Counted from the stretch's first letter, positions 1-24,021 are shown. The stretch is 64,000 nt of DNA from Escherichia coli (GCF_048403405.1 NZ_CP183129.1), one strand, 5' to 3'. Notes: generated by a model not told the origin, from the sequence alone. Numbers and translations are program-made.

Positions 1-291
1 GGCCTGACCGTGACTCCGGGTATTGGTGTGCAGTGGAACAGCGAAAACCAGAACGAATACTATTATGGCGTATCGCGCAAAGAGTCCGCTCGCAGCGGTC
101 TGCGTGGCTATAACCCGAACGACAGCTGGAGCCCTTACCTGGAGCTGAGCGCCAGCTACAACTTCCTCGGCGACTGGAGTGTTTACGGTACCGCGCGCTA
201 CACCCGTCTGTCTGATGAAGTTACTGACAGCCCGATGGTGGATAAATCCTGGACTGGCCTGATTTCTACCGGGATCACCTACAAATTCTGA
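1..291 (+). CDS. mipA: MltA-interacting outer-membrane protein MipA, C-terminal fragment (5' end lies outside the window)
   Basis: ORF in frame with window start; beta-barrel-like C-terminus ending in aromatic residue (..ITYKF); sits next to yeaE as in E. coli. Confidence 0.7.
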   Translation, partial: GLTVTPGIGVQWNSENQNEYYYGVSRKESARSGLRGYNPNDSWSPYLELSASYNFLGDWSVYGTARYTRLSDEVTDSPMVDKSWTGLISTGITYKF

Positions 292-380
292 TAATGCATC
301 TTTCCAGGGCATTTTGTGCATAAAAACAGGGCGTCACGCCCTGTTTTGCATTACGGTGGTGCAATACCTGGGAGGAAACA

Positions 381-1235
381 ATGCAACAAAAAATGATTCA
401 ATTTAGTGGCGATGTCTCACTGCCAGCCATAGGGCAGGGAACATGGTATATGGGCGAAGATGCCAGTCAGCGCAAAACAGAAGTAGCTGCACTACGCGCG
501 GGCATTGAACTCGGTTTAACCCTCATTGATACCGCCGAAATGTATGCCGATGGTGGTGCCGAAAAGGTGGTTGGGGAAGCATTAACCGGTCTGCGAGAGA
601 AGGTCTTTCTCGTCTCTAAAGTCTATCCGTGGAATGCTGGCGGGCAAAAAGCGATAAATGCATGCGAAGCCAGTTTACGCCGTCTCAATACTGATTATCT
701 CGATCTCTACTTATTACACTGGTCTGGCAGTTTCGCTCTCGAAGAGACTGTCGCAGCGATGGACAAATTGGTCGCCCAGGGCAAAATCCGCCGCTGGGGC
801 GTTTCTAACCTTGATTATGCCGATATGCAGGAACTCTGGCAGCTGCCGGGGGGAAATCAGTGTGCCACTAATCAGGTACTTTACCATCTCGGTTCACGAG
901 GGATTGAGTACGATCTACTTCCCTGGTGCCAGCAACAGCAGATACCGGTGATGGCTTACAGTCCGTTAGCTCAGGCCGGGCGGTTGCGCAATGGGCTGCT
1001 AAAAAACGCAGTAGTCAACGAAATTGCACATGCTCACAATATCAGCTCGGCACAAGTATTGTTGGCGTGGGTAATCAGCCATCAGGGTGTGATGGCGATT
1101 CCAAAAGCGGCCACGATTGCCCATGTCCAACAGAATGCGGCTGTGCTTGAGGTCGAACTTTCTCCAGCGGAATTAGCTATGCTGGATAAAGCGTATCCGG
1201 CACCAAAAGGAAAAACTGCGCTGGATATGGTGTGA
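381..1235 (+). CDS. yeaE: aldo-keto reductase (methylglyoxal reductase-like)
   Basis: 284-aa ORF with AKR-family sequence; conserved gene order. Confidence 0.85.
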   Translation: MQQKMIQFSGDVSLPAIGQGTWYMGEDASQRKTEVAALRAGIELGLTLIDTAEMYADGGAEKVVGEALTGLREKVFLVSKVYPWNAGGQKAINACEASLRRLNTDYLDLYLLHWSGSFALEETVAAMDKLVAQGKIRRWGVSNLDYADMQELWQLPGGNQCATNQVLYHLGSRGIEYDLLPWCQQQQIPVMAYSPLAQAGRLRNGLLKNAVVNEIAHAHNISSAQVLLAWVISHQGVMAIPKAATIAHVQQNAAVLEVELSPAELAMLDKAYPAPKGKTALDMV

Positions 1236-1244
1236 TGTTGATAC

Positions 1245-1269
1245 GTGCCGGATGCATCGCACCCGGCAC
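1245..1269. repeat. REP-like palindromic unit between convergent yeaE and yeaD (GTGCCGG...CCGGCAC)
   Basis: 7-bp inverted repeat with GCCGGATG core typical of enterobacterial REP sequences. Confidence 0.5.
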
Positions 1270-1285
1270 ACAACATTAACGCAAA

Positions 1286-2170
1286 TTAACGTTTGGCAAC
1301 GCGAATGGATTGCGCCAGATGTGCAGGTTTTTCTTTGGTGACTTTTTGCGTTTCTGAAGCGTAAGCCGTTTCTACACAAACAAAGGTCTTGTAGCCATCG
1401 TCCGGCATGTCGCCCATGCTAACTGAAAGCGCCGGTCCCGGATTCCAGCCTACAACGTTCAGATGATGCTGGTGACCTACGGCGATAATACGATTCAGCG
1501 CTTCATCATTAATCACGCTGCAATCTTGCGGATTCAGATACACGCGATCGGTACGGTCAGGGAAGGTCTGAATACCGTCGGTCAGTACATCTTCTTTCGC
1601 GTCATTCACTTTATCAATGAAGCGATCGCCCAGCCCACTGACGCTTACCTTAGCGATATCACCCACGTTAAAGTAGGTATGCAGGGCAGAGGTGGTTTCA
1701 AATTCGCCGTGTGCTTCAAGATCGATTTCACAGGTTTTACCCACGCGGAAATACGCTAACAGCGTAAAGTCGTGCGGCCAGAATTTTTTCGTCTCTTCGC
1801 TTTGCGTCAATTCAAAAGTCAGCGCTACGCCATCAGCATCTTCATGATGTGATTTCAGCGTCCACGGCAGGTTGCGGGCAAAACCGTGCGCAGGCAGGCC
1901 TTGTTGTGCAGCCGGACCAAACCACGGCCAGCAAACCGGTACGCCACCGCGAATAGCGACGCCATTTTTGAACGGTGTGTTGTTACTCAACCACAGAACT
2001 TCTTCTTCACCCGCAGGTTTCCATGAGAGAAGGTGTGCGCCCTGTAATGCAAAAGAGGCTTTTACCTGGGGATGATCGACCACAATGAGGTCCAGTTCAT
2101 CCAGTTTACGACGGGAGAGGACAGGGGAGATTTGTTCGATGACCGGAAGGGCAAAAATTTTCTTAATCAT
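1286..2170 (-). CDS. yeaD: aldose 1-epimerase family protein (glucose-6-phosphate 1-epimerase)
   Basis: 294-aa product when started at internal Met MIKKIFALPV; ORF track gives 7 extra upstream codons. Confidence 0.85.
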   Translation of the reverse strand: MIKKIFALPVIEQISPVLSRRKLDELDLIVVDHPQVKASFALQGAHLLSWKPAGEEEVLWLSNNTPFKNGVAIRGGVPVCWPWFGPAAQQGLPAHGFARNLPWTLKSHHEDADGVALTFELTQSEETKKFWPHDFTLLAYFRVGKTCEIDLEAHGEFETTSALHTYFNVGDIAKVSVSGLGDRFIDKVNDAKEDVLTDGIQTFPDRTDRVYLNPQDCSVINDEALNRIIAVGHQHHLNVVGWNPGPALSVSMGDMPDDGYKTFVCVETAYASETQKVTKEKPAHLAQSIRVAKR

Positions 2171-2201
2171 GACGCAGTCCTTTAACTTCATTTTATCAGG
2201 T

Positions 2202-2232
2202 AAAAAAAAGAGCGACCGAAGTCGCTCTTTTT
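2202..2232 (-). terminator. rho-independent terminator downstream of gapA (hairpin GAGCGAC-CGAA-GTCGCTC flanked by A and T runs, so potentially bidirectional)
   Basis: perfect 7-bp stem at 2210-2228 with A8 upstream and T5 downstream on the plus strand. Confidence 0.7.
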
Positions 2233-2253
2233 AGATCACAGTGTCATCTCAAC

Positions 2254-3261
<1,008 letters not shown>

Positions 3262-3590
3262 CTATTTGTTAGTGAATAAAAGGTTGCCTGTAAAATTACA
3301 AAAACCTTACGCAGCGTCAAGCGGAATCGTGTCAATCATTGCGACAAATCAATCCTGTGCCTAAGCATTACGCGACTGACTCGCCTCACTCTTCCTTTGG
3401 GCTTGAGACCACATGGGGTCGGCGTCCCGAATTTTAAAGGGCAATTACGATAAAAATGTGATTTTCATCACGATTTAGGTGCAGCCATTTCGTCGAGATC
3501 AAGTTTAGGACAAATTTTTGCCAGTTGGTGTTAATGTTTTGTTAGAATCAGTCACGTAATGTGAGCACGATTAAAGTGAGATGTGAGCAA

Positions 3591-4004
3591 ATGGCTAATA
3601 AACCTTCGGCAGAAGAACTGAAAAAAAATTTGTCCGAGATGAAGTTCTACGTGACGCAGAATCATGGGACAGAGCCGCCATTTACGGGTCGTTTACTGCA
3701 TAACAAGCGTGACGGCGTATATCACTGTTTGATCTGCGATGCCCCGCTGTTTCATTCCCAAACCAAGTATGATTCCGGCTGTGGCTGGCCCAGTTTCTAC
3801 GAACCGGTGAGTGAAGAATCCATTCGTTATATCAAAGACTTGTCACATGGAATGCAGCGCATAGAAATTCGTTGCGGTAACTGTGATGCCCATCTGGGGC
3901 ATGTCTTCCCCGACGGGCCGCAGCCAACGGGTGAACGTTATTGTGTTAACTCAGCCTCTTTACGCTTTACCGATGGCGAAAACGGCGAAGAAATCAACGG
4001 TTGA
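3591..4004 (+). CDS. msrB: peptide methionine-(R)-sulfoxide reductase MsrB
   Basis: 137-aa product from internal Met [10 protein letters not shown]; two CxxC zinc motifs ([16 protein letters not shown]) and catalytic RYCVNSA. Confidence 0.9.
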
Positions 4005-4045
4005 AAAAACGATTCAGCAACTTATTCCACAGGAGCGGAAAAATT

Positions 4046-4318
4046 ATGAATCTTGATGACATTATCAACAGCATGACGCTTGAGGTATACCAGCGTTTGT
4101 CGACCGCCGTTGAATTGGGCAAATGGCCTGATGGCGTTGCGTTGACCGAGGAACAAAAAGAGAACTGCCTGCAACTGGTGATGCTGTGGCAAGCCCGCAA
4201 TAATACCGAAGCACAGCATATGACAATTGACACAAATGGTCAGATGGTCATGAAGAGCAAACAACAGTTAAAAGAAGATTTTGGTATCTCAGCAAAGGCT
4301 ATTGCCATGTTTAAGTAA
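4046..4318 (+). CDS. yeaC: DUF1315 family protein YeaC
   Basis: 90-aa product starting MNLDDIINS, preceded by AGGAG Shine-Dalgarno at 4031-4035. Confidence 0.8.
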   Translation: MNLDDIINSMTLEVYQRLSTAVELGKWPDGVALTEEQKENCLQLVMLWQARNNTEAQHMTIDTNGQMVMKSKQQLKEDFGISAKAIAMFK

Positions 4319-4576
4319 GTGGTTTGTCCCCTTTTTGCCGCGGTTATAAAGGGGATAGCCAACAATAACCCCACGACTCATCTCAATTATCTCGTCACGA
4401 CCAGGCTAAGTCCCAGCCCGGTCTCTTGCAGTCGCGTTCACGCCTGAATGACTTCTCCTGAACTTAAGTCTCAGACCTATTTGGCCGGTAATCCCTCTCA
4501 AATTTGCTCATTTTGCGTTCCGCCTTCCATCAACCTGTAACAGATCCAGCCATTTTCTGCGTAATTGTGATCTGAG

Positions 4577-4610
4577 TTGTAAAACGCAGATCATTATCTG
4601 TGTTTTACAG
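4577..4610. promoter_or_regulatory. 34-bp imperfect palindrome (TGTAAAAC-N16-GTTTTACA with nested CAGAT-CATT-ATCTG) upstream of ydjL; candidate operator
   Basis: 8-bp perfect inverted repeat at 4578-4585 and 4602-4609 plus inner palindrome 4587-4600, about 80 bp upstream of the ydjL start. Confidence 0.4.
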
Positions 4611-4618
4611 ATTTAATG

Positions 4619-4649
4619 TTGACCTCAAAAATCATGTGGGTAAGTATGA
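4619..4649 (+). promoter_or_regulatory. putative sigma70 promoter of the ydjL operon (-35 TTGACC, -10-like TAAGTAT/TATGAT)
   Basis: consensus-like TTGACC at 4619-4624 followed 16-19 bp later by A/T-rich -10 candidates. Confidence 0.3.
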
Positions 4650-4687
4650 TGACCATCTAAGCAAAACAAAACACAGAGGATGACGCA

Positions 4688-5764
4688 ATGAAAGCACTGG
4701 CTCGGTTTGGCAAAGCCTTTGGCGGCTACAAGATGATCGATGTCCCACAACCCATTTGTGGCCCGGAAGATGTAGTGATTGAAATTAAAGCCGCGGCAAT
4801 CTGCGGCGCAGACATGAAGCACTACAATGTCGATAGCGGTTCTGATGAGTTTAACTCTATCCGCGGCCATGAGTTCGCAGGTTGTATTGCGCAGGTTGGT
4901 GAAAAAGTCAAAGACTGGAAAGTGGGGCAACGCGTCGTGTCGGATAACAGCGGTCACGTCTGCGGCGTTTGTCCGGCCTGTGAACAAGGTGATTTTCTGT
5001 GTTGTACAGAAAAAGTAAACCTTGGTCTGGATAACAATACCTGGGGCGGTGGTTTTTCCAAATATTGTCTGGTTCCTGGTGAAATTCTCAAAATTCATCG
5101 TCATGCATTGTGGGAAATCCCTGATGGTGTTGATTATGAGGACGCAGCCATACTTGACCCTATCTGTAATGCCTATAAATCCATCGCGCAGCAATCGAAA
5201 TTCCTCCCTGGTCAGGATGTGGTCGTCATCGGCACTGGCCCACTCGGGCTGTTCTCCGTACAAATGGCGCGGATTATGGGGGCGGTAAATATCGTCGTCG
5301 TTGGTCTACAAGAAGATGTGGCGGTCCGCTTCCCGGTTGCAAAAGAACTGGGTGCGACGGCAGTAGTAAATGGTTCTACCGAAGATGTGGTGGCGCGCTG
5401 CCAGCAAATTTGTGGCAAAGACAATCTGGGACTGGTGATTGAATGCTCCGGTGCCAATATCGCACTGAAACAAGCCATCGAAATGCTCCGTCCGAACGGG
5501 GAAGTGGTACGCGTTGGAATGGGCTTCAAACCTCTTGATTTCTCGATTAATGACATTACCGCCTGGAACAAAAGCATCATTGGGCATATGGCCTATGACT
5601 CCACCTCATGGCGTAACGCTCTCCGGCTATTAGCCAGCGGCGCTATCAAAGTCAAACCGATGATCACGCATCGTATCGGCCTGTCGCAATGGCGCGAAGG
5701 GTTTGATGCGATGGTCGATAAAACCGCAATCAAAGTGATCATGACTTACGACTTTGATGAATAA
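4688..5764 (+). CDS. ydjL: zinc-dependent alcohol/polyol dehydrogenase (MDR family)
   Basis: 358 aa; GHEFAG and Cys-rich structural zinc motif CGVCPACEQGDFLCC; first gene of compact ydj cluster. Confidence 0.85.
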   Translation: MKALARFGKAFGGYKMIDVPQPICGPEDVVIEIKAAAICGADMKHYNVDSGSDEFNSIRGHEFAGCIAQVGEKVKDWKVGQRVVSDNSGHVCGVCPACEQGDFLCCTEKVNLGLDNNTWGGGFSKYCLVPGEILKIHRHALWEIPDGVDYEDAAILDPICNAYKSIAQQSKFLPGQDVVVIGTGPLGLFSVQMARIMGAVNIVVVGLQEDVAVRFPVAKELGATAVVNGSTEDVVARCQQICGKDNLGLVIECSGANIALKQAIEMLRPNGEVVRVGMGFKPLDFSINDITAWNKSIIGHMAYDSTSWRNALRLLASGAIKVKPMITHRIGLSQWREGFDAMVDKTAIKVIMTYDFDE

Positions 5765-5790
5765 CTACTCTCCTGAAGGAACGTTATCGC

Positions 5791-7170
5791 ATGGAACAGA
5801 TAACAAAACCGCATTGTGGTGCACGGCTGGATCGCTTACCGGATTGCCGCTGGCATTCGTCAATGTTTGCCATCGTCTCGTTTGGCTTGCTTGTCTGCTG
5901 GAGTAATGCCGTTGGTGGCTTGATCCTCGCGCAGCTGAAAGAGTTGGGCTGGACAGATAATTCCACCACTGCCACATTCTCAGCAATCACGACCGCCGGA
6001 ATGTTTCTCGGTGCGCTGGTTGGCGGCATCATCGGTGACAAAACCGGTCGCAGAAATGCGTTCATCCTCTATGAGGCCATTCATATTGCCTCGATGGTGG
6101 TCGGTGCTTTTTCACCGAATATGGATTTCCTTATTGCCTGCCGTTTTGTGATGGGCGTTGGGCTGGGAGCTTTACTGGTGACGCTGTTTGCTGGTTTCAC
6201 CGAATATATGCCCGGTAGAAATCGCGGAACGTGGTCCAGTCGGGTTTCTTTTATTGGCAACTGGTCATATCCGCTCTGTTCATTGATTGCGATGGGACTC
6301 ACGCCGCTGATTAGTGCAGAGTGGAACTGGCGAGTACAACTGCTTATCCCTGCAATATTGTCGCTTATCGCTACGGCGCTGGCCTGGCGCTACTTTCCTG
6401 AATCCCCGCGCTGGCTGGAATCGCGCGGACGGTATCAGGAAGCCGAGAAAGTCATGCGGAGTATAGAAGAAGGCGTCATACGCCAGACGGGAAAACCTTT
6501 GCCGCCCGTGGTTATTGCTGATGACGGTAAAGCGCCACAAGCGGTGCCGTATTCAGCCTTAATGACAGGAGTATTACTGAAACGCGTGATATTAGGCTCT
6601 TGTGTGCTGATTGCCATGAACGTTGTGCAGTACACACTAATTAACTGGTTGCCAACAATATTCATGACCCAGGGGATTAATTTAAAAGACTCGATTGTTT
6701 TAAATACCATGAGTATGTTTGGCGCGCCATTTGGTATTTTTATTGCTATGCTGGTGATGGATAAAATTCCGCGTAAAACAATGGGTGTGGGGCTATTAAT
6801 CCTGATTGCGGTGCTCGGATATATCTATTCACTGCAAACCAGTATGTTGCTCATAACGTTGATTGGTTTCTTCCTGATTACTTTCGTCTATATGTACGTT
6901 TGCTATGCCTCGGCAGTGTATGTCCCTGAGATCTGGCCGACAGAGGCCAAATTACGTGGCTCCGGTCTGGCGAATGCAGTAGGGCGAATCAGTGGTATTG
7001 CCGCACCTTATGCCGTTGCAGTGCTGCTCAGTAGTTATGGCGTAACGGGAGTCTTTATTCTTCTGGGGGCGGTTTCAATTATTGTCGCAATTGCTATCGC
7101 CACCATTGGAATTGAAACCAAAGGTGTCTCCGTTGAAAGTTTAAGTATTGATGCAGTAGTCAATAAATAA
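5791..7170 (+). CDS. ydjK: MFS transporter (sugar/metabolite:H+ symporter type)
   Basis: 459 aa, about 12 predicted TM segments, MFS motif GDKTGRR; paralogous to YdjE in the same cluster. Confidence 0.85.
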   Translation: MEQITKPHCGARLDRLPDCRWHSSMFAIVSFGLLVCWSNAVGGLILAQLKELGWTDNSTTATFSAITTAGMFLGALVGGIIGDKTGRRNAFILYEAIHIASMVVGAFSPNMDFLIACRFVMGVGLGALLVTLFAGFTEYMPGRNRGTWSSRVSFIGNWSYPLCSLIAMGLTPLISAEWNWRVQLLIPAILSLIATALAWRYFPESPRWLESRGRYQEAEKVMRSIEEGVIRQTGKPLPPVVIADDGKAPQAVPYSALMTGVLLKRVILGSCVLIAMNVVQYTLINWLPTIFMTQGINLKDSIVLNTMSMFGAPFGIFIAMLVMDKIPRKTMGVGLLILIAVLGYIYSLQTSMLLITLIGFFLITFVYMYVCYASAVYVPEIWPTEAKLRGSGLANAVGRISGIAAPYAVAVLLSSYGVTGVFILLGAVSIIVAIAIATIGIETKGVSVESLSIDAVVNK

Positions 7171-9091: not shown

Positions 9092-10039
9092 ATGGATAAT
9101 CTCGACGTTATTTGTATAGGTGCCGCTATTGTTGATATTCCATTGCAACCGGTCAGTAAAAATATCTTTGATGTGGATTCTTATCCTCTTGAAAGAATCG
9201 CAATGACCACCGGGGGTGATGCAATAAATGAAGCAACAATTATTTCTCGTCTGGGCCATCGCACAGCATTAATGAGTCGTATTGGTAAAGATGCCGCCGG
9301 GCAATTTATTCTCGACCATTGCCGCAAAGAGAATATTGATATTCAAAGCCTGAAGCAGGACGTCAGCATAGATACCTCAATTAACGTTGGACTGGTGACG
9401 GAGGATGGCGAGCGGACGTTTGTCACAAACTGTAACGGCAGTCTGTGGAAATTGAATATTGACGATGTTGATTTTTCGCGGTTTTCTCAGGCGAAATTAT
9501 TATCTCTGGCCAGTATTTTCAACAGTCCTCTATTGGATGGTAAAGCGCTAACAGAAATTTTTACGCAAGCTAAAGCCCGGCAGATGATTATCTGTGCCGA
9601 TATGATCAAACCGCGGTTGAATGAAACGCTGGATGATATTTGCGAAGCATTGAGTTATGTCGATTATCTGTTTCCTAATTATGCCGAGGCAAAATTACTC
9701 ACCGGGAAAGAGACACTGGAGGAAATTGCTGACTGCTTTCTTGCGTGCGGCGTAAAAACGGTGGTGATTAAAACGGGTAAAGACGGCTGCTTTATCAAGC
9801 GTGGTGACATGACGATGAAGGTGCCGGCGGTCGCAGGAATAACCGCCATCGACACCATTGGCGCGGGCGATAACTTTGCTTCAGGTTTTATTGCGGCACT
9901 GTTAGAAGGCAAAAATCTGCGTGAATGCGCACGCTTTGCCAATGCAACGGCGGCTATCTCGGTTCTAAGCGTCGGTGCCTCCACCGGCGTAAAAAACAGA
10001 AAGCTGGTCGAACAATTGCTGGAAGAATACGAAGGATAA
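9092..10039 (+). CDS. ydjH: sugar kinase of the ribokinase/PfkB family
   Basis: 315 aa from Met MDNLDVICIG; PfkB signature GAGDNFASGF; ORF track start 9071 would overlap ydjI. Confidence 0.8.
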   Translation: MDNLDVICIGAAIVDIPLQPVSKNIFDVDSYPLERIAMTTGGDAINEATIISRLGHRTALMSRIGKDAAGQFILDHCRKENIDIQSLKQDVSIDTSINVGLVTEDGERTFVTNCNGSLWKLNIDDVDFSRFSQAKLLSLASIFNSPLLDGKALTEIFTQAKARQMIICADMIKPRLNETLDDICEALSYVDYLFPNYAEAKLLTGKETLEEIADCFLACGVKTVVIKTGKDGCFIKRGDMTMKVPAVAGITAIDTIGAGDNFASGFIAALLEGKNLRECARFANATAAISVLSVGASTGVKNRKLVEQLLEEYEG

Positions 10040-10048
10040 TGAAGGCAA

Positions 10049-11029
10049 ATGAAAAAGATACCTTTAGGCACAACGGATATTACGCTTTCGCGAATGGGGT
10101 TGGGGACATGGGCCATTGGCGGCGGTCCTGCATGGAATGGCGATCTCGATCGACAAATATGTATTGATACGATTCTTGAAGCCCATCGTTGCGGCATTAA
10201 CCTGATTGATACTGCGCCAGGATATAACTTTGGCAATAGTGAAGTTATCGTCGGTCAGGCGTTAAAAAAACTGCCCCGTGAACAGGTTGTAGTAGAAACC
10301 AAATGCGGCATTGTCTGGGAACGAAAAGGGAGTTTATTCAACAAAGTTGGCGATCGGCAGTTGTATAAAAACCTTTCCCCGGAATCTATCCGCAAAGAGG
10401 TAGAAGCCAGCTTGCAACGTCTGGGTATTGATTACATCGATATCTACATGACGCACTGGCAGTCGGTGCCGCCATTTTTTACGCCGATCGCTGAAACTGT
10501 CGCAGTGCTCAATGAGTTAAAGGACGAAGGGAAAATTCGCGCTATAGGCGCTGCTAACGTCGATGCTGACCATATCCGCGAGTATCTGCAATATGGTGAA
10601 CTGGATATTATTCAGGCGAAATACAGTATCCTCGACCGGGCAATGGAAAGCGAACTGCTGCCGCTATGTCGTGATAATGGCATTGTGGTACAGGTTTATT
10701 CGCCGTTAGAGCAGGGATTGTTGACCGGTACCATCACTCGTGATTACGTTCCGGGCGGCGCTCGGGCAAATAAAGTCTGGTTCCAGCGTGAAAACATGCT
10801 GAAAGTGATTGATATGCTTGAACAGTGGCAGCCACTCTGTGCTCGTTATCAGTGCACAATTCCCACTCTGGCACTGGCGTGGATATTAAAACAGAGTGAT
10901 TTAATCTCCATTCTTAGTGGGGCTACTGCACCGGAACAGGTACGCGAAAATGTCGCGGCATTGAATATCAACTTATCGGATGCAGACGCAACATTGATGA
11001 GGGAAATGGCAGAGGCCCTGGAGCGTTAA
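10049..11029 (+). CDS. ydjG: aldo-keto reductase (NADH-dependent methylglyoxal reductase type)
   Basis: 326 aa AKR-family ORF, 9 bp after ydjH. Confidence 0.85.
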   Translation: MKKIPLGTTDITLSRMGLGTWAIGGGPAWNGDLDRQICIDTILEAHRCGINLIDTAPGYNFGNSEVIVGQALKKLPREQVVVETKCGIVWERKGSLFNKVGDRQLYKNLSPESIRKEVEASLQRLGIDYIDIYMTHWQSVPPFFTPIAETVAVLNELKDEGKIRAIGAANVDADHIREYLQYGELDIIQAKYSILDRAMESELLPLCRDNGIVVQVYSPLEQGLLTGTITRDYVPGGARANKVWFQRENMLKVIDMLEQWQPLCARYQCTIPTLALAWILKQSDLISILSGATAPEQVRENVAALNINLSDADATLMREMAEALER

Positions 11030-11165
11030 ATACTCAACACGATTCACCTCTGTTTCTGTGAAAACTGTGATGAAAATCTGTGATTCAAACAGGTTATTTT
11101 GAAAGTAAACATCGGTTATGCGATAATCGCGCTAATGTGATGTAAAAAGATACAGGGGTGTAATC

Positions 11166-11923
11166 GTGGCGGCAAAAGACAGGATTCAGGCAATTAAGCA
11201 AATGGTTGCCAACGATAAAAAGGTGACAGTCTCAAATTTGAGTGGGATTTTTCAGGTAACCGAAGAAACCATTCGCCGCGATCTCGAGAAGCTGGAAGAT
11301 GAAGGCTTTTTGACCAGAACCTATGGTGGTGCTGTTTTAAATACAGCGATGTTGACGGAGAATATCCATTTTTATAAGCGCGCTTCATCGTTTTATGAAG
11401 AGAAGCAGCTTATTGCACGCAAGGCACTACCCTTTATCGACAATAAAACCACTATGGCAGCCGATTCCAGTAGTACCGTTATGGAATTGCTCAAATTGTT
11501 GCAGGACCGTAGTGACCTGACGTTGCTAACTAACTCGGCGGAAGCGATTCATGTTCTGGCTCAATCAGAAATTAAAGTCGTTTCAACGGGGGGGAACTAA
11601 ACAAAAATACACTTTCCCTGCAAGGAAGAATTACTAAAGAGATCATCAGCCGCTACCATGTCGATATCATGGTAATGAGTTGTAAAGGTCTTGATATTAA
11701 CAGCGGCGCGCTGGACTCTAACGAAGCGGAAGCTGAAATCAAAAAGACAATGATCCGTCAGGCGACAGAGGTTGCGTTATTGGTTGATCACTCTAAGTTT
11801 GATCGCAAAGCTTTTGTCCAGTTAGCTGACTTTAGTCATATTAATTACATAATAACTGATAAATCACCGGGTGCAGAGTGGATAGCATTTTGCAAAGACA
11901 ATAATATCCAGCTGGTGTGGTAA
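11166..11923 (+). pseudogene. ydjF: DeoR-family transcriptional regulator interrupted by a -1 frameshift in a G7 tract (11588-11594)
   Basis: N-terminal HTH ORF 11166-11600 (GTG start) and C-terminal sugar-binding-domain ORF 11669-11923 are in different frames; reading continues as ..VVSTGG/GELNKNTLSLQGR.. if one nucleotide is added in the G run. Confidence 0.6.
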
Positions 11924-12040
11924 TTTAAGCACACGTTGTCAATATTATTTGTTCCTGCGCCTGGAAAATAAAATGATGATAAAGATGCGGCAAGTGAATT
12001 TGCCGCAATTGCTACCTTTTTAGCAAATCCGAGGCACCTA

Positions 12041-13399
12041 ATGGAACAATATGATCAAATTGGCGCAAGACTGGACCGCTTGCCTTTGGCCCGGTTTCAT
12101 TATCGTATATTTGGTATTATAAGCTTTAGTCTGTTATTAACGGGTTTTTTGAGTTATTCAGGCAATGTTGTTTTAGCAAAGCTGGTAAGCAATGGATGGT
12201 CAAATAATTTCCTCAATGCCGCCTTTACCTCGGCATTAATGTTTGGTTATTTCATCGGCTCTCTTACCGGTGGGTTCATCGGTGATTATTTTGGGCGGCG
12301 CAGGGCTTTTCGCATAAATCTTCTCATCGTCGGTATTGCGGCAACAGGGGCCGCTTTTGTCCCTGATATGTACTGGCTCATCTTCTTTCGCTTCCTGATG
12401 GGCACAGGAATGGGGGCGCTGATTATGGTTGGCTATGCTTCGTTTACGGAGTTTATCCCCGCGACGGTGCGTGGAAAATGGTCCGCGCGGCTCTCATTTG
12501 TCGGTAACTGGTCGCCCATGTTGTCTGCGGCGATAGGCGTGGTGGTTATCGCTTTTTTTAGTTGGCGGATAATGTTTCTGCTGGGTGGTATTGTCATACT
12601 GTTAGCCTGGTTTCTCTCAGGTAAATACTTTATTGAGTCGCCTCGATGGTTGGCGGGGAAAGGACAAATCGCAGGTGCAGAAAGCCAACTTCGTGAAGTA
12701 GAGCAGCAAATTGAAAGAGAGAAGAGTGTTCGTTTACCCCCGCTTACTTTGAATCAGAGCAACAGCAAGGCTAACGTAATCAATGGTACTTTCTGGCTGC
12801 TGTTTAAAGGGGAAATGTTACGACGTACATTAGTCGCGATTACTGTTTTAATTGCAATGAATATTTCACTTTATACCATCACCGTATGGATACCGACCAT
12901 ATTTGTTAACTCCGGCATTGATGTCGATAAATCAATATTAATGACTGCTGTTATTATGATTGGCGCTCCGGTAGGAATATTTATTGCGGCATTAATTATT
13001 GATCATTTTCCTCGTCGATTATTTGGCTCCGCCTTACTTATTATTATTGCCGTGTTAGGCTATATCTATTCAATTCAGACTACAGAGTGGGCGATTTTAA
13101 TCTATGGCCTGGTGATGATCTTCTTTTTATACATGTATGTTTGCTTCGCGTCGGCGGTTTATATCCCGGAGCTCTGGCCAACGCATTTACGCTTGCGCGG
13201 TTCGGGTTTCGTTAATGCCGTCGGACGGATCGTCGCGGTCTTCACGCCTTATGGCGTTGCGGCACTATTAACGCATTATGGGTCAATCACGGTGTTTATG
13301 GTGCTTGGCGTGATGTTAGTGCTCTGTGCGCTGGTTCTCTCCATTTTTGGCATCGAAACGCGGAAGGTGTCGCTGGAAGAGATTTCTGAGGTGAATTAA
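12041..13399 (+). CDS. ydjE: MFS transporter, paralogue of YdjK
   Basis: 452 aa; N-terminus MEQ..ARLDRLP and motif GDYFGRR parallel YdjK. Confidence 0.85.
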   Translation: MEQYDQIGARLDRLPLARFHYRIFGIISFSLLLTGFLSYSGNVVLAKLVSNGWSNNFLNAAFTSALMFGYFIGSLTGGFIGDYFGRRRAFRINLLIVGIAATGAAFVPDMYWLIFFRFLMGTGMGALIMVGYASFTEFIPATVRGKWSARLSFVGNWSPMLSAAIGVVVIAFFSWRIMFLLGGIVILLAWFLSGKYFIESPRWLAGKGQIAGAESQLREVEQQIEREKSVRLPPLTLNQSNSKANVINGTFWLLFKGEMLRRTLVAITVLIAMNISLYTITVWIPTIFVNSGIDVDKSILMTAVIMIGAPVGIFIAALIIDHFPRRLFGSALLIIIAVLGYIYSIQTTEWAILIYGLVMIFFLYMYVCFASAVYIPELWPTHLRLRGSGFVNAVGRIVAVFTPYGVAALLTHYGSITVFMVLGVMLVLCALVLSIFGIETRKVSLEEISEVN

Positions 13400-14143: not shown

Positions 14144-15160
14144 TTAATCATCCGGCGTCAGTTCGCCGCGCAGGTTTTGGCTCATGGCCTTGCGAATGGT
14201 TTCAGTATCCAGTTCCTGGCTAAGCAGGTAATGCAGTTTGGTTAGTGTGGCTTCTACAGTCATATCTGCACCGCCAATAACGCCGGCATGGGCGAGGGCG
14301 TTACCGGTGGCATAACCACCCATGTTCACTTTACCGGACATACATTGTGTCAGGTTGACCACCACAATACCGCGATCGCTGGCTTCTTGTAATTCCTGCA
14401 GGAAGGCTTTGTTTTGTGGCGCATTACCCACGCCATATGAGCGCAGAATCAATGCTTTCACCGGTTGGCGCAGAAAATTGCGCACGACGTCAGCAGAAAT
14501 CCCTGGATAAATCGTCACTACGCCAATCGGTTGTGGGGTGATTGGATGAACGATCAATTCCCCTTCACCGTGCGGGGCGGGTGGCGTATTCAAACGACGA
14601 ATATGGATACCTGCTTCCAGTAACGGAGGAAGGTTTGGAGAGGCAAACGCATCAAAACCATCGGCATGGGCTTTGGTGGTACGGTTGCCACGATAAAGTC
14701 GATTATTAAAAAAGAGAGTTACTTCGTTGATAGGATAATTCGCCGCAACGTACAACGCATTCAGCAGATTAATTTGTCCGTCAGAGCGTAACTCAGCTAG
14801 CGGGATTTGTGACCCTGTCACAATGACCGGTTTACCGAGATTCTCGAGCATGAACGACAGCGCAGAGGCGGTATACGCCATCGTGTCGGTGCCGTGCAGA
14901 ATGACAAAACCATCATAGTCGTCATAATGCGCTTTAATATCTTCAGCAATATGCTGCCAGTCTTCTGGCGTCATATCTGAAGAGTCCATCAGCGGCGTAT
15001 ATTCATGAATGGTGAAATCTGGCATCTCCGGGCGATGGAATTCCGGCATCAGCGCCAGTTGGCGCTGTAGATGACCTGACACCGGAATATAACCCTGCTC
15101 GGAACGCTGCATCCCGATGGTCCCGCCCGTGTAGGCGACGTAAATTGATTTCTTTTGCAT
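14144..15160 (-). CDS. ansA: cytoplasmic L-asparaginase I
   Basis: 338 aa from Met MQKKSIYVAYTGGTIG (asparaginase TGGTIG motif); long upstream extension in ORF track rejected. Confidence 0.9.
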   Translation of the reverse strand: MQKKSIYVAYTGGTIGMQRSEQGYIPVSGHLQRQLALMPEFHRPEMPDFTIHEYTPLMDSSDMTPEDWQHIAEDIKAHYDDYDGFVILHGTDTMAYTASALSFMLENLGKPVIVTGSQIPLAELRSDGQINLLNALYVAANYPINEVTLFFNNRLYRGNRTTKAHADGFDAFASPNLPPLLEAGIHIRRLNTPPAPHGEGELIVHPITPQPIGVVTIYPGISADVVRNFLRQPVKALILRSYGVGNAPQNKAFLQELQEASDRGIVVVNLTQCMSGKVNMGGYATGNALAHAGVIGGADMTVEATLTKLHYLLSQELDTETIRKAMSQNLRGELTPDD

Positions 15161-15324
15161 GATATTGATATGAATGATATCGAAAGAGCAAAAGTATATA
15201 CGTGAGGCAGGGGGAGCGCACCTGATACTATGCGGATAAGGAAATATGGGGCGAGACAGCGGGAAGAGGATTCGTCGAGGTAAAAAAATGTGGCCGACGA
15301 TCTGTCGGCCACTCAGTACAAGAC

Positions 15325-23400: not shown

Positions 23401-24021
23401 GTGCTAGACCGCCATCTTCATCCCCGAATTAAACCTTTGTTGCATCAGTGTGTGAAGGTGCTGGATAAACCCGGCATCACGCCAGATGGTTTAACATTAG
23501 TGGGATTTGCCATCGGTGTGCTGGCACTGCCTTTTCTGGCGCTGGGCTGGTATCTGGCGGCGCTTGTCGTCATTTTGTTAAACAGGCTGCTTGATGGTCT
23601 GGACGGTGCGCTGGCGCGGCGCAGAGGGCTTACCGACGCGGGCGGCTTTCTCGATATTTCTCTCGATTTTCTCTTTTACGCGCTGGTGCCGTTTGGTTTT
23701 ATTCTTGCTGCACCGGAGCAAAATGCGCTGGCAGGCGGCTGGCTGCTGTTTGCGTTTATCGGTACGGGCAGCAGTTTTCTCGCCTTTGCTGCACTGGCAG
23801 CAAAACATCAGATTGATAACCCCGGTTATGCACATAAGTCGTTTTACTATCTGGGGGGATTAACCGAAGGCACTGAAACGATCTTACTGTTTGTGCTGGG
23901 ATGTTTATTCCCTGCATGGTTTGTGTGGTTTGCGTGGATCTTCGGTGCGTTGTGCTGGATGACGACCTTTACGCGGGTGTGGAGTGGGTATCTGACGCTG
24001 AAGTCGCTCCAGCGTCAGTAA
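23401..24021 (+). CDS. ynjF: CDP-alcohol phosphatidyltransferase family membrane protein
   Basis: motif DGLDGALARRRGLTDAGGFLDISLD; GTG start 6 nt after AAGGAG (ORF track start 23395 also GTG). Confidence 0.75.
   Translation: MLDRHLHPRIKPLLHQCVKVLDKPGITPDGLTLVGFAIGVLALPFLALGWYLAALVVILLNRLLDGLDGALARRRGLTDAGGFLDISLDFLFYALVPFGFILAAPEQNALAGGWLLFAFIGTGSSFLAFAALAAKHQIDNPGYAHKSFYYLGGLTEGTETILLFVLGCLFPAWFVWFAWIFGALCWMTTFTRVWSGYLTLKSLQRQ

Follow-up and report, generated by a model that had tools for sequence, protein, structure and literature searches.

The ydjG-ydjF spacer and its CTGTGA repeats

The genes ydjG and ydjF are separated by 136 nt in the window (the whole stretch of Escherichia coli DNA analyzed here, 64,000 nucleotides), with the ydjG stop at 11029 and the GTG start of ydjF at 11166. 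Both gene names were confirmed by the RefSeq annotation of identical DNA. ydjF (11166-11923) is a pseudogene in this sequence, where a single T is deleted in ACGGGTGGGG and the reading frame ends at 11600. The lesion was found in one of 4328 E. coli genomes, that of B1.H1.39 (NZ_CP146556.1), which is identical to the window from 10880 to 12320 and in which RefSeq marks ydjF as frameshifted. The features of the spacer are the following.

11046-11057, plus strand: 5' arm ACCTCTGTTTCT of a predicted helix, complementary to the ydjF ribosome-binding region and overlapping the first 2 nt of CTGTGA copy 1
11056-11061, plus strand: CTGTGA copy 1, within the distal conserved box TCTGTGAAAA (11055-11064)
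11065-11070, plus strand: CTGTGA copy 2, specific to E. coli, which gives the strong half-site TGTGA of a CRP box
11066-11081, plus strand: weak CRP box TGTGATGAAAATCTGT, made of copy 2 and the first four bases of copy 3, 8.27 bits
11076-11092, plus strand: proximal box ATCTGTGATTCAAACAG, conserved, starting 23 nt before the -35 hexamer; putative operator half-site whose right half is degenerate
11078-11083, plus strand: CTGTGA copy 3, within the proximal conserved box, its columns invariant or nearly invariant across genera
11099-11127, plus strand: ydjF promoter, with -35 TTGAAA (11099-11104), a 17-nt spacer and the TG-extended -10 GATAAT (11122-11127)
11148-11159, plus strand: 3' arm of the predicted helix, the ydjF Shine-Dalgarno region AGATACAGGGGT (GGAAACAGAGGT in other genera)
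11166-11600, plus strand: ydjF, encoding a DeoR/GlpR-family regulator, truncated to 144 aa by the 1-nt deletion at 11590

The promoter scan returned one promoter-like site in the spacer, with 10 of 12 hexamer matches, and this promoter is conserved in the alignment of orthologous spacers. A genomic SELEX study that used RNA polymerase holoenzyme by itself catalogued the identical ydjF hexamers as a constitutive RpoD promoter (PMC3946193). From the position of the -10 hexamer, transcription would start near 11134 (11134-11135), placing the CTGTGA hexamers at about -79 to -52 and the conserved boxes at about -79 to -42; the literature searched contained no mapped transcription start for ydjF or ydjL. 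The scan of the spacer predicted no terminator between ydjG and ydjF, and an Rfam search of 10900-11300 gave no credible match.

A reading made from the sequence alone had reported three CTGTGA copies between the two genes, and they are present on the plus strand at 11056, 11065 and 11078. The -35 hexamer of the ydjF promoter lies 16-43 nt downstream of them, 16 nt after copy 3. The distances from start to start are 9 and 13 nt, and the helical-turn spacing that had been attributed to the repeats is found between copies 1 and 3 (22 nt, about two helical turns) and in no other pair. In the window CTGTGA matches 16 times where 25 are expected, so it is not enriched. Under a first-order Markov null, 0.375 triplets of any one hexamer (non-overlapping, within at most 28 nt) are expected per 64 kb against three observed, the ydjF cluster among them, so the cluster by itself is only mildly unusual. 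The two further same-strand triplets within 28 nt are of TTTCTC and of TGATAT (23647-23673 and 15160-15180). A search with the extended repeat TGTGATGAAAAT, at up to three mismatches, found nothing specific besides 11066, 11079 and 11136. On the sequence comparisons below, conservation and a common motif at a second promoter carry the argument, and not the cluster itself.

Conserved boxes at the ydjF and ydjL promoters

One genome per species was scanned with YdjF, which gave 22 orthologous ydjG-ydjF loci and an alignment of 23 spacers. The loci belong to Escherichia, Citrobacter, Klebsiella, Raoultella, Yokenella, Intestinirhabdus, Symbiopectobacterium, Serratia and a record labelled Budvicia (about nine genera). 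Two stretches of the spacer are nearly invariant, AAATCTGTGATTCAGACA, which holds copy 3, and CCTCTGTTTCTGTGTAAAA. Copy 3 stands in the nearly invariant block AAATCTGTGATTCAGACATGT, which runs into the conserved -35 hexamer, and copy 1 in a second conserved block, ACCTCTGTTTCTGTGTAAAA; outside E. coli this copy is kept as TCTGTGTAAAA, with TGTGT and not TGTGA. Between the two blocks are 10-12 nt that vary freely and contain copy 2. Among the 22 orthologous loci copy 2 is confined to E. coli, E. whittamii having TATGA in its place, and by this alignment it is a substitution-derived feature of E. coli. Conservation among orthologues, the lack of which, together with mutations that leave ydjF expression unchanged, the sequence-only reading had named as refuting its suggestion, was found over the 22 loci for copies 1 and 3 and was missing for copy 2. 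The repeated CTGTGA did not survive as a unit; the conserved core is TCTGTG at copies 1 and 3, and copy 2 is separate.

The segment 11040-11110 is identical in 3311 of 4329 E. coli genomes. Polymorphisms sampled in the species fall at 11076, 11088, 11091 and 11097, none of them in the hexamers. The spacer itself is present in 4329 of 5426 complete E. coli genomes, so about a fifth of the strains are without this part of the cluster. E. coli LZYWN_4 has a 12-bp deletion between two TGAAAA repeats, equivalent to 11059-11070, which fuses copies 1 and 2; this slippage deletion reduces the spacing of the boxes from 22 to 10 bp and is a natural spacing mutant. Serratia sp. H1w carries phage tail genes in place of ydjL to ydjI (positions 1-6500 of its locus), with only a remnant of ydjH. 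It retains ydjG, ydjF and ydjE, and the distal box upstream of its ydjF is lost.

The motif recurs at ydjL, where the features are as follows.

4577-4612, plus strand: putative palindromic operator region of the ydjL promoter, with the core TCTGTGTTTTACAGA at 4597-4611, a perfect dyad
4619-4624, plus strand: ydjL -35 hexamer TTGACC, conserved
4996-5010, plus strand: palindrome TCTGTGTTGTACAGA inside ydjL, an exact TCTGT-N5-ACAGA, putative auxiliary operator

Upstream of E. coli ydjL, ATCTGTGTTTTACAGAT (4596-4612) belongs to an inverted repeat of 14 nt, with arms at 4578-4591 and 4596-4609, set in a denser array of ATCTG/CAGAT half-sites. In an alignment of seven upstream regions (E. coli and six other enteric genomes), TGTGATC and ATCTGTGTTT..AGATTT..TGTTGAC are invariant and the flanks diverge. 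The register relative to the promoter is the same at both genes: from the start of ATCTGTG to the -35 hexamer there are 23 nt at ydjL (4596 to 4619) and at ydjF (11076 to 11099), and a second TGTG-AAA box lies 21-22 nt farther upstream in each case. The assignment of the ydjL promoter is not certain. Its control region (4566-4624) has a weak -10, AAGTAT, with 3 of 6 matches, it does not appear in the list of the consensus scan, and the scan proposed a different promoter overlapping the palindrome.

The relation between the two promoters was examined reciprocally, with one matrix built solely from the ydjL-promoter boxes of species other than E. coli and one built in reverse from ydjF boxes. 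The first puts the proximal box of E. coli ydjF second among about 128,000 positions; of its six top matches five lie in ydj control regions, and TCTGTGTTGTACAGA comes third. The reverse matrix places the ydjL box 6th of about 128,000 positions. The full form of the motif, TCTGTGTT(T/G)TACAGA, is found just upstream of the ydjL -35 and again about 300 bp inside ydjL, and TCTGT-N5-ACAGA has exactly two occurrences in 64 kb, one at the ydjL promoter and one inside ydjL. By the matrix and the exact-palindrome searches together, the motif is common to the ydj promoters yet rare elsewhere in the 64 kb.

The intragenic palindrome lies about 400 bp downstream of the ydjL promoter operator. In five genera the stretch that contains it, TTTTCTGTGTTGTACAGAAAA (4993-5013), is the most synonymously constrained of ydjL: the fraction of taxa that differ synonymously is 0.031 in the 8-codon window with the palindrome and 0.542 on average over the gene, which places this window first of 249. 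Non-enteric YdjL homologues have the same DFLCC peptide in other codons, and the palindrome is absent from them. It is likely to be an auxiliary operator, with an RNA hairpin as the alternative. Intragenic auxiliary operators some 400 bp from the promoter operator are familiar in sugar repressors that act by looping.

Other candidates in this region were discarded. A putative operator inside ydjH, GCAGATGATTATCTGTG (9581-9597), is identical at 16 of 17 positions to the ydjL promoter sequence 4586-4602; it was rejected because synonymous sites there vary freely in other genera, and the resemblance is probably a coincidence. The complementarity of 4591-4606 to 4668-4683 (ydjL promoter box and ribosome-binding region) is also probably coincidental, since the pairing is lost in other genera. 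A role of the ydjL palindrome as terminator of the upstream gene was rejected, since Citrobacter, Klebsiella and Yokenella keep the palindrome although their upstream gene is divergent. Firmicutes, Brachyspira and Coriobacterium encode proteins that share 80-85% identity with E. coli YdjL, at six loci with different gene contexts, which suggests recent horizontal transfer of ydjL.

The CRP site and alternative readings of the repeats

TGTGA is a half-site for CRP, whose full site is TGTGA-N6-TCACA, and the class I CRP site of the lac type is centered at -61.5. In the ydjF spacer, the box at 11066-11081 has a perfect left half, TGTGA, an N6 spacer and a right half, TCTGT, with 2 of 5 matches to TCACA. 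Its center, 11073.5, would have a class I position, -60.5 to -61.5 relative to the predicted start, although this geometry follows from the start as placed by the -10 hexamer. A cAMP-CRP SELEX-chip study counted ydjF among its new targets, with a peak in the ydjG-ydjF spacer, and its Table S3 gives for this spacer the box ACAGATTTTCATCACA at 1.85297 Mb (Shimada 2011, PMC3105977), which is the reverse complement of 11066-11081. The resolution of the method is a few hundred bp (60-nt probes per 105 bp, fragments of about 300 bp), and the box was chosen by sequence (PMC3105977).

A simple CRP consensus search with three mismatches was uninformative (215 matches against 228 by chance), and a matrix was used, built from the 38 boxes of Table S3 whose targets were already in RegulonDB. 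With it the ydjF box scores 8.27 bits (about 8.3-8.5) and ranks 19 in the window. For known CRP sites recovered by SELEX the same matrix gives scores from 5.5 bits upward (lower quartile 9.8, median 12.7), and the ydjF box is near the 95th percentile for shuffled spacers of 140 nt (8.2 bits). The top match of the window is TGTGATTTTCATCACG (3457-3472, 16.9 bits), between msrB and gapA, which is the gapA site of Table S3. In the spacer alignment of the 22 loci the strong CRP half-site is absent outside Escherichia. In the 22 orthologues the best matches lie at inconsistent positions and have a mean of 4.2 bits (shuffled null 2.6 +/- 3.0); with scores so low and so inconsistently placed, the conserved blocks are not CRP sites and the CRP site is lineage-specific. 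The available supplement of a Crp ChIP-exo study (PMC5957442) has no entry for ydjF, ydjG, ydjL or ydjE. The controls ydjN and mglB are present in it, but gapA and manX are likewise missing, so that the absence is only a weak negative.

The site resembles class I promoters of the lac type in its one perfect TGTGA half, 6-bp spacer, predicted center and published cAMP-dependent binding in vitro. It differs from them in its second half, its low score and its lack of conservation outside E. coli, and the ydjF promoter is in itself strong and needs no factor to bind RNA polymerase. Copy 2 and the TCTGT of copy 3 form a weak, E. coli-specific cAMP-CRP site, for which binding in vitro is published and which CRP may use in vivo.

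It is quite unlikely that CRP accounts for the whole arrangement, with all three TGTGA elements as half-sites of a CRP-dependent promoter that binds at least one CRP dimer and has no local regulator. TGTGA is indeed a CRP half-site, the SELEX-chip peak is cAMP-dependent with its box over copies 2 and 3, the center falls near -61 from the predicted start, and the known manX site, ACGGATCTTCATCACA, is of similar form. However, one TGTGA-N6 frame alone reaches 8.3 bits, and frames that take their strong half from copy 1 or copy 3 never exceed 2 bits. The strong half is not conserved, the orthologues have a mean best score of 4.2 bits (null 2.6 +/- 3.0), inconsistently placed, and the conserved blocks are direct TCTGTG repeats and not TGTGA-N6-TCACA. 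In addition, RNA polymerase alone binds the promoter in vitro, and ydj entries are absent from the available ChIP-exo supplement. As YdjF is an inferred binder, the TCTGT boxes might instead be bound by another regulator, global or unlinked, which we regard as unlikely. LexA is one candidate: its half-site is CTGT, YdjF belongs to its expression cluster (PMC6055005), and a LexA ChIP-chip signal at ydjF led to the proposal of a degenerate box, CCCTGTATCTTTTTACATCA, CTGT-N8-ACAT, at 11140-11159 on the minus strand (PMC3542263). But the motif is confined to the ydj cluster within the 64 kb and occurs together with ydjF in every orthologous cluster examined. For LexA itself, the spacing CTGT-N8-ACAG is not kept (CTGT-N7-ACAG at 11078-11092, N6 in the ydjL palindrome), and the proposed box is conserved within Escherichia only. 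The region of that box includes a fourth TGTGAT (11136-11141). That the set as a whole is without function, a short motif that came together by chance in AT-rich intergenic DNA, is hardly credible. About 0.4 triplets of any hexamer are expected per 64 kb, so that one is unremarkable, CTGTGA is not enriched in the window, and copy 2 arose in Escherichia alone, through point substitutions. Chance is already contradicted for copies 1 and 3, however, by blocks conserved over about nine genera amid variable neighbors, and a second promoter carries the motif in the same register.

The conservation may also be read at the level of RNA. The spacer gave a single-sequence fold with z = -3.9, and RNAalifold independently predicted a 12-bp helix between 11046-11057 and 11148-11159, in which 97.8% of the cells of the alignment pair, against 47-62% with the partner slid. 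Covariation is nearly absent (two cells changed on both sides, covariation term -0.45 kcal/mol), because both arms are almost invariant. As the 5' arm is upstream of the ydjF promoter, only transcripts that read through from ydjG carry it, and in these the predicted helix could block translation of YdjF from the operon mRNA. It resembles long-range anti-Shine-Dalgarno pairing in its conserved complementarity to the ribosome-binding site and in an upstream arm outside the transcript from the gene's own promoter; it differs in that the helix is without covariation, its arms overlap a DNA motif and it is known from sequence alone. The arms contain TCTGT and ACAGA and could be, in DNA, inverted half-sites flanking the promoter; because they coincide with this motif, the DNA and RNA readings are inseparable here. 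That anti-Shine-Dalgarno pairing in read-through transcripts explains the conservation, the hexamers being incidental, seems to us very improbable. The helix, its pairing frequency and the fold score favor it, as do the lack of a predicted terminator between ydjG and ydjF and the Serratia Shine-Dalgarno, which by eye is still paired in a shifted register; the helix explains the 5' part of the distal block equally well. On the other hand, it takes in just 2 nt of copy 1 and does not touch copies 2 and 3, its arms offer essentially no covariation, and the same complementarity can be read as inverted half-sites in DNA. It also leaves unexplained the invariant proximal box and its identity with the palindromes at the ydjL promoter and inside ydjL.

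YdjF as candidate binder and the regulation of the ydj cluster

The repeats had been suggested to be an autoregulatory or a CRP-related site, and each of the two hypotheses is partly right, for different copies. On the best reading of the sequence the three repeats are unequal, with copies 1 and 3 in a conserved putative operator and copy 2 in a weak CRP site. Autoregulation is plausible for copies 1 and 3, which lie in conserved boxes and have their core repeated at the ydjL promoter and inside ydjL, and not for copy 2. The CRP suggestion is partly supported by copy 2 with the start of copy 3, the published SELEX box, a weak site whose strong half is absent outside Escherichia.

The binder of this putative cluster-specific operator is most likely YdjF. 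Its orthologues carry HTH_DeoR and DeoRC domains, and ydjF accompanies the motif in every orthologous cluster examined. The searchable literature that mentions ydjF contains no YdjF binding site or regulon. Distant homologues of YdjF (Clostridia, Mucilaginibacter; 28-39% identity) were set aside, being in a different gene context. We give a probability of about 0.6 to the whole explanation, in which copies 1 and 3 would be operator half-sites with YdjF as the likely binder and copy 2 a lineage-specific CRP site. It draws on data presented here or cited: the sequence, the promoter and its conservation, the motif and its register at both promoters, the synonymous constraint, and the binding of CRP and of RNA polymerase in vitro.

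By this mechanism, the TCTGTG cores of copies 1 and 3, 22 bp apart, would be half-sites of the ydj-cluster operator. YdjF, encoded immediately downstream, would bind the ydjL operators and control ydjLKJIHG, a sugar-phosphate inducer would release it, and the operators might be joined by looping. If YdjF is the binder, ydjF would be autoregulated, and YdjF would act more weakly on its own promoter, through half-sites only, as a negative autoregulator. In E. coli only, copy 2 with the TCTGT of copy 3 would add a weak cAMP-CRP input of class I, centered near -61. At ydjF there are direct TCTGTG half-sites alone, separated by 22 bp, the right half reads AAACA or AGACA and not ACAGA, and the boxes are upstream of the -35 and -10 hexamers and not over them. 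This is not the classic repressor position, and an activator could use it as well; half-sites upstream of the -35 of a factor-independent promoter suggest a weaker autoregulation. We infer repression rather than activation, and looping between the operators likewise. In culture the ydjL promoter stays silent, and in the mouse gut it is switched on (PMC6561318); this behavior fits a repressed, inducible operon.

The architecture is conventional: putative local repressor operators with a CRP site, as in ordinary regulation. Sugar repressors of the DeoR/GlpR family with described operators in E. coli include DeoR (deoO1/O2/OE), GlpR (glpD/glpK), AgaR and UlaR. The ydj cluster resembles these systems in a regulator gene adjoining a sugar-catabolic operon, in several operator copies, one of them lying within a structural gene some hundreds of bp away from the operator at the promoter, and in a TGT-rich palindrome or repeat accompanied by a CRP site. 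The ydj motif, TCTGTGTTKTACAGA, differs from the consensus of DeoR (TGTTAGAA.TTCTAACA) and from that of GlpR, and ydjF differs from the operators of the family in having half-sites only, upstream of the -35, with putative binding by YdjF. The operator assignment appears to be new in the searchable literature; the CRP part was already published. A more elaborate arrangement is tentative and rather doubtful, a three-operator system (at the ydjL promoter, about 400 bp inside ydjL and at the ydjF half-sites), all bound by YdjF, together with the anti-Shine-Dalgarno block and the CRP input of E. coli. If it were true, YdjF would be made only from a small autoregulated promoter, and its synthesis would not follow the induction of the operon.

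The listing of ydjF as a CRP target in the literature should not be extended to other enterobacteria, since the site is weak and specific to E. coli. If YdjF is a repressor, the strain with the frameshift should express the ydj operon constitutively. The ydj cluster is among the remaining sugar-catabolic clusters of E. coli without a known natural substrate or regulator, and its main promoter was among the most consistent sensors, on in the gut and off in culture, of a promoter-library screen (PMC6561318). The motif TCTGTGTTKTACAGA and the ydjF half-sites offer a cheap and concrete handle for tests of YdjF binding. The motif can also be used to engineer a gut sensor and to screen for inducers by loss of binding, which could help to identify the substrate of the pathway.
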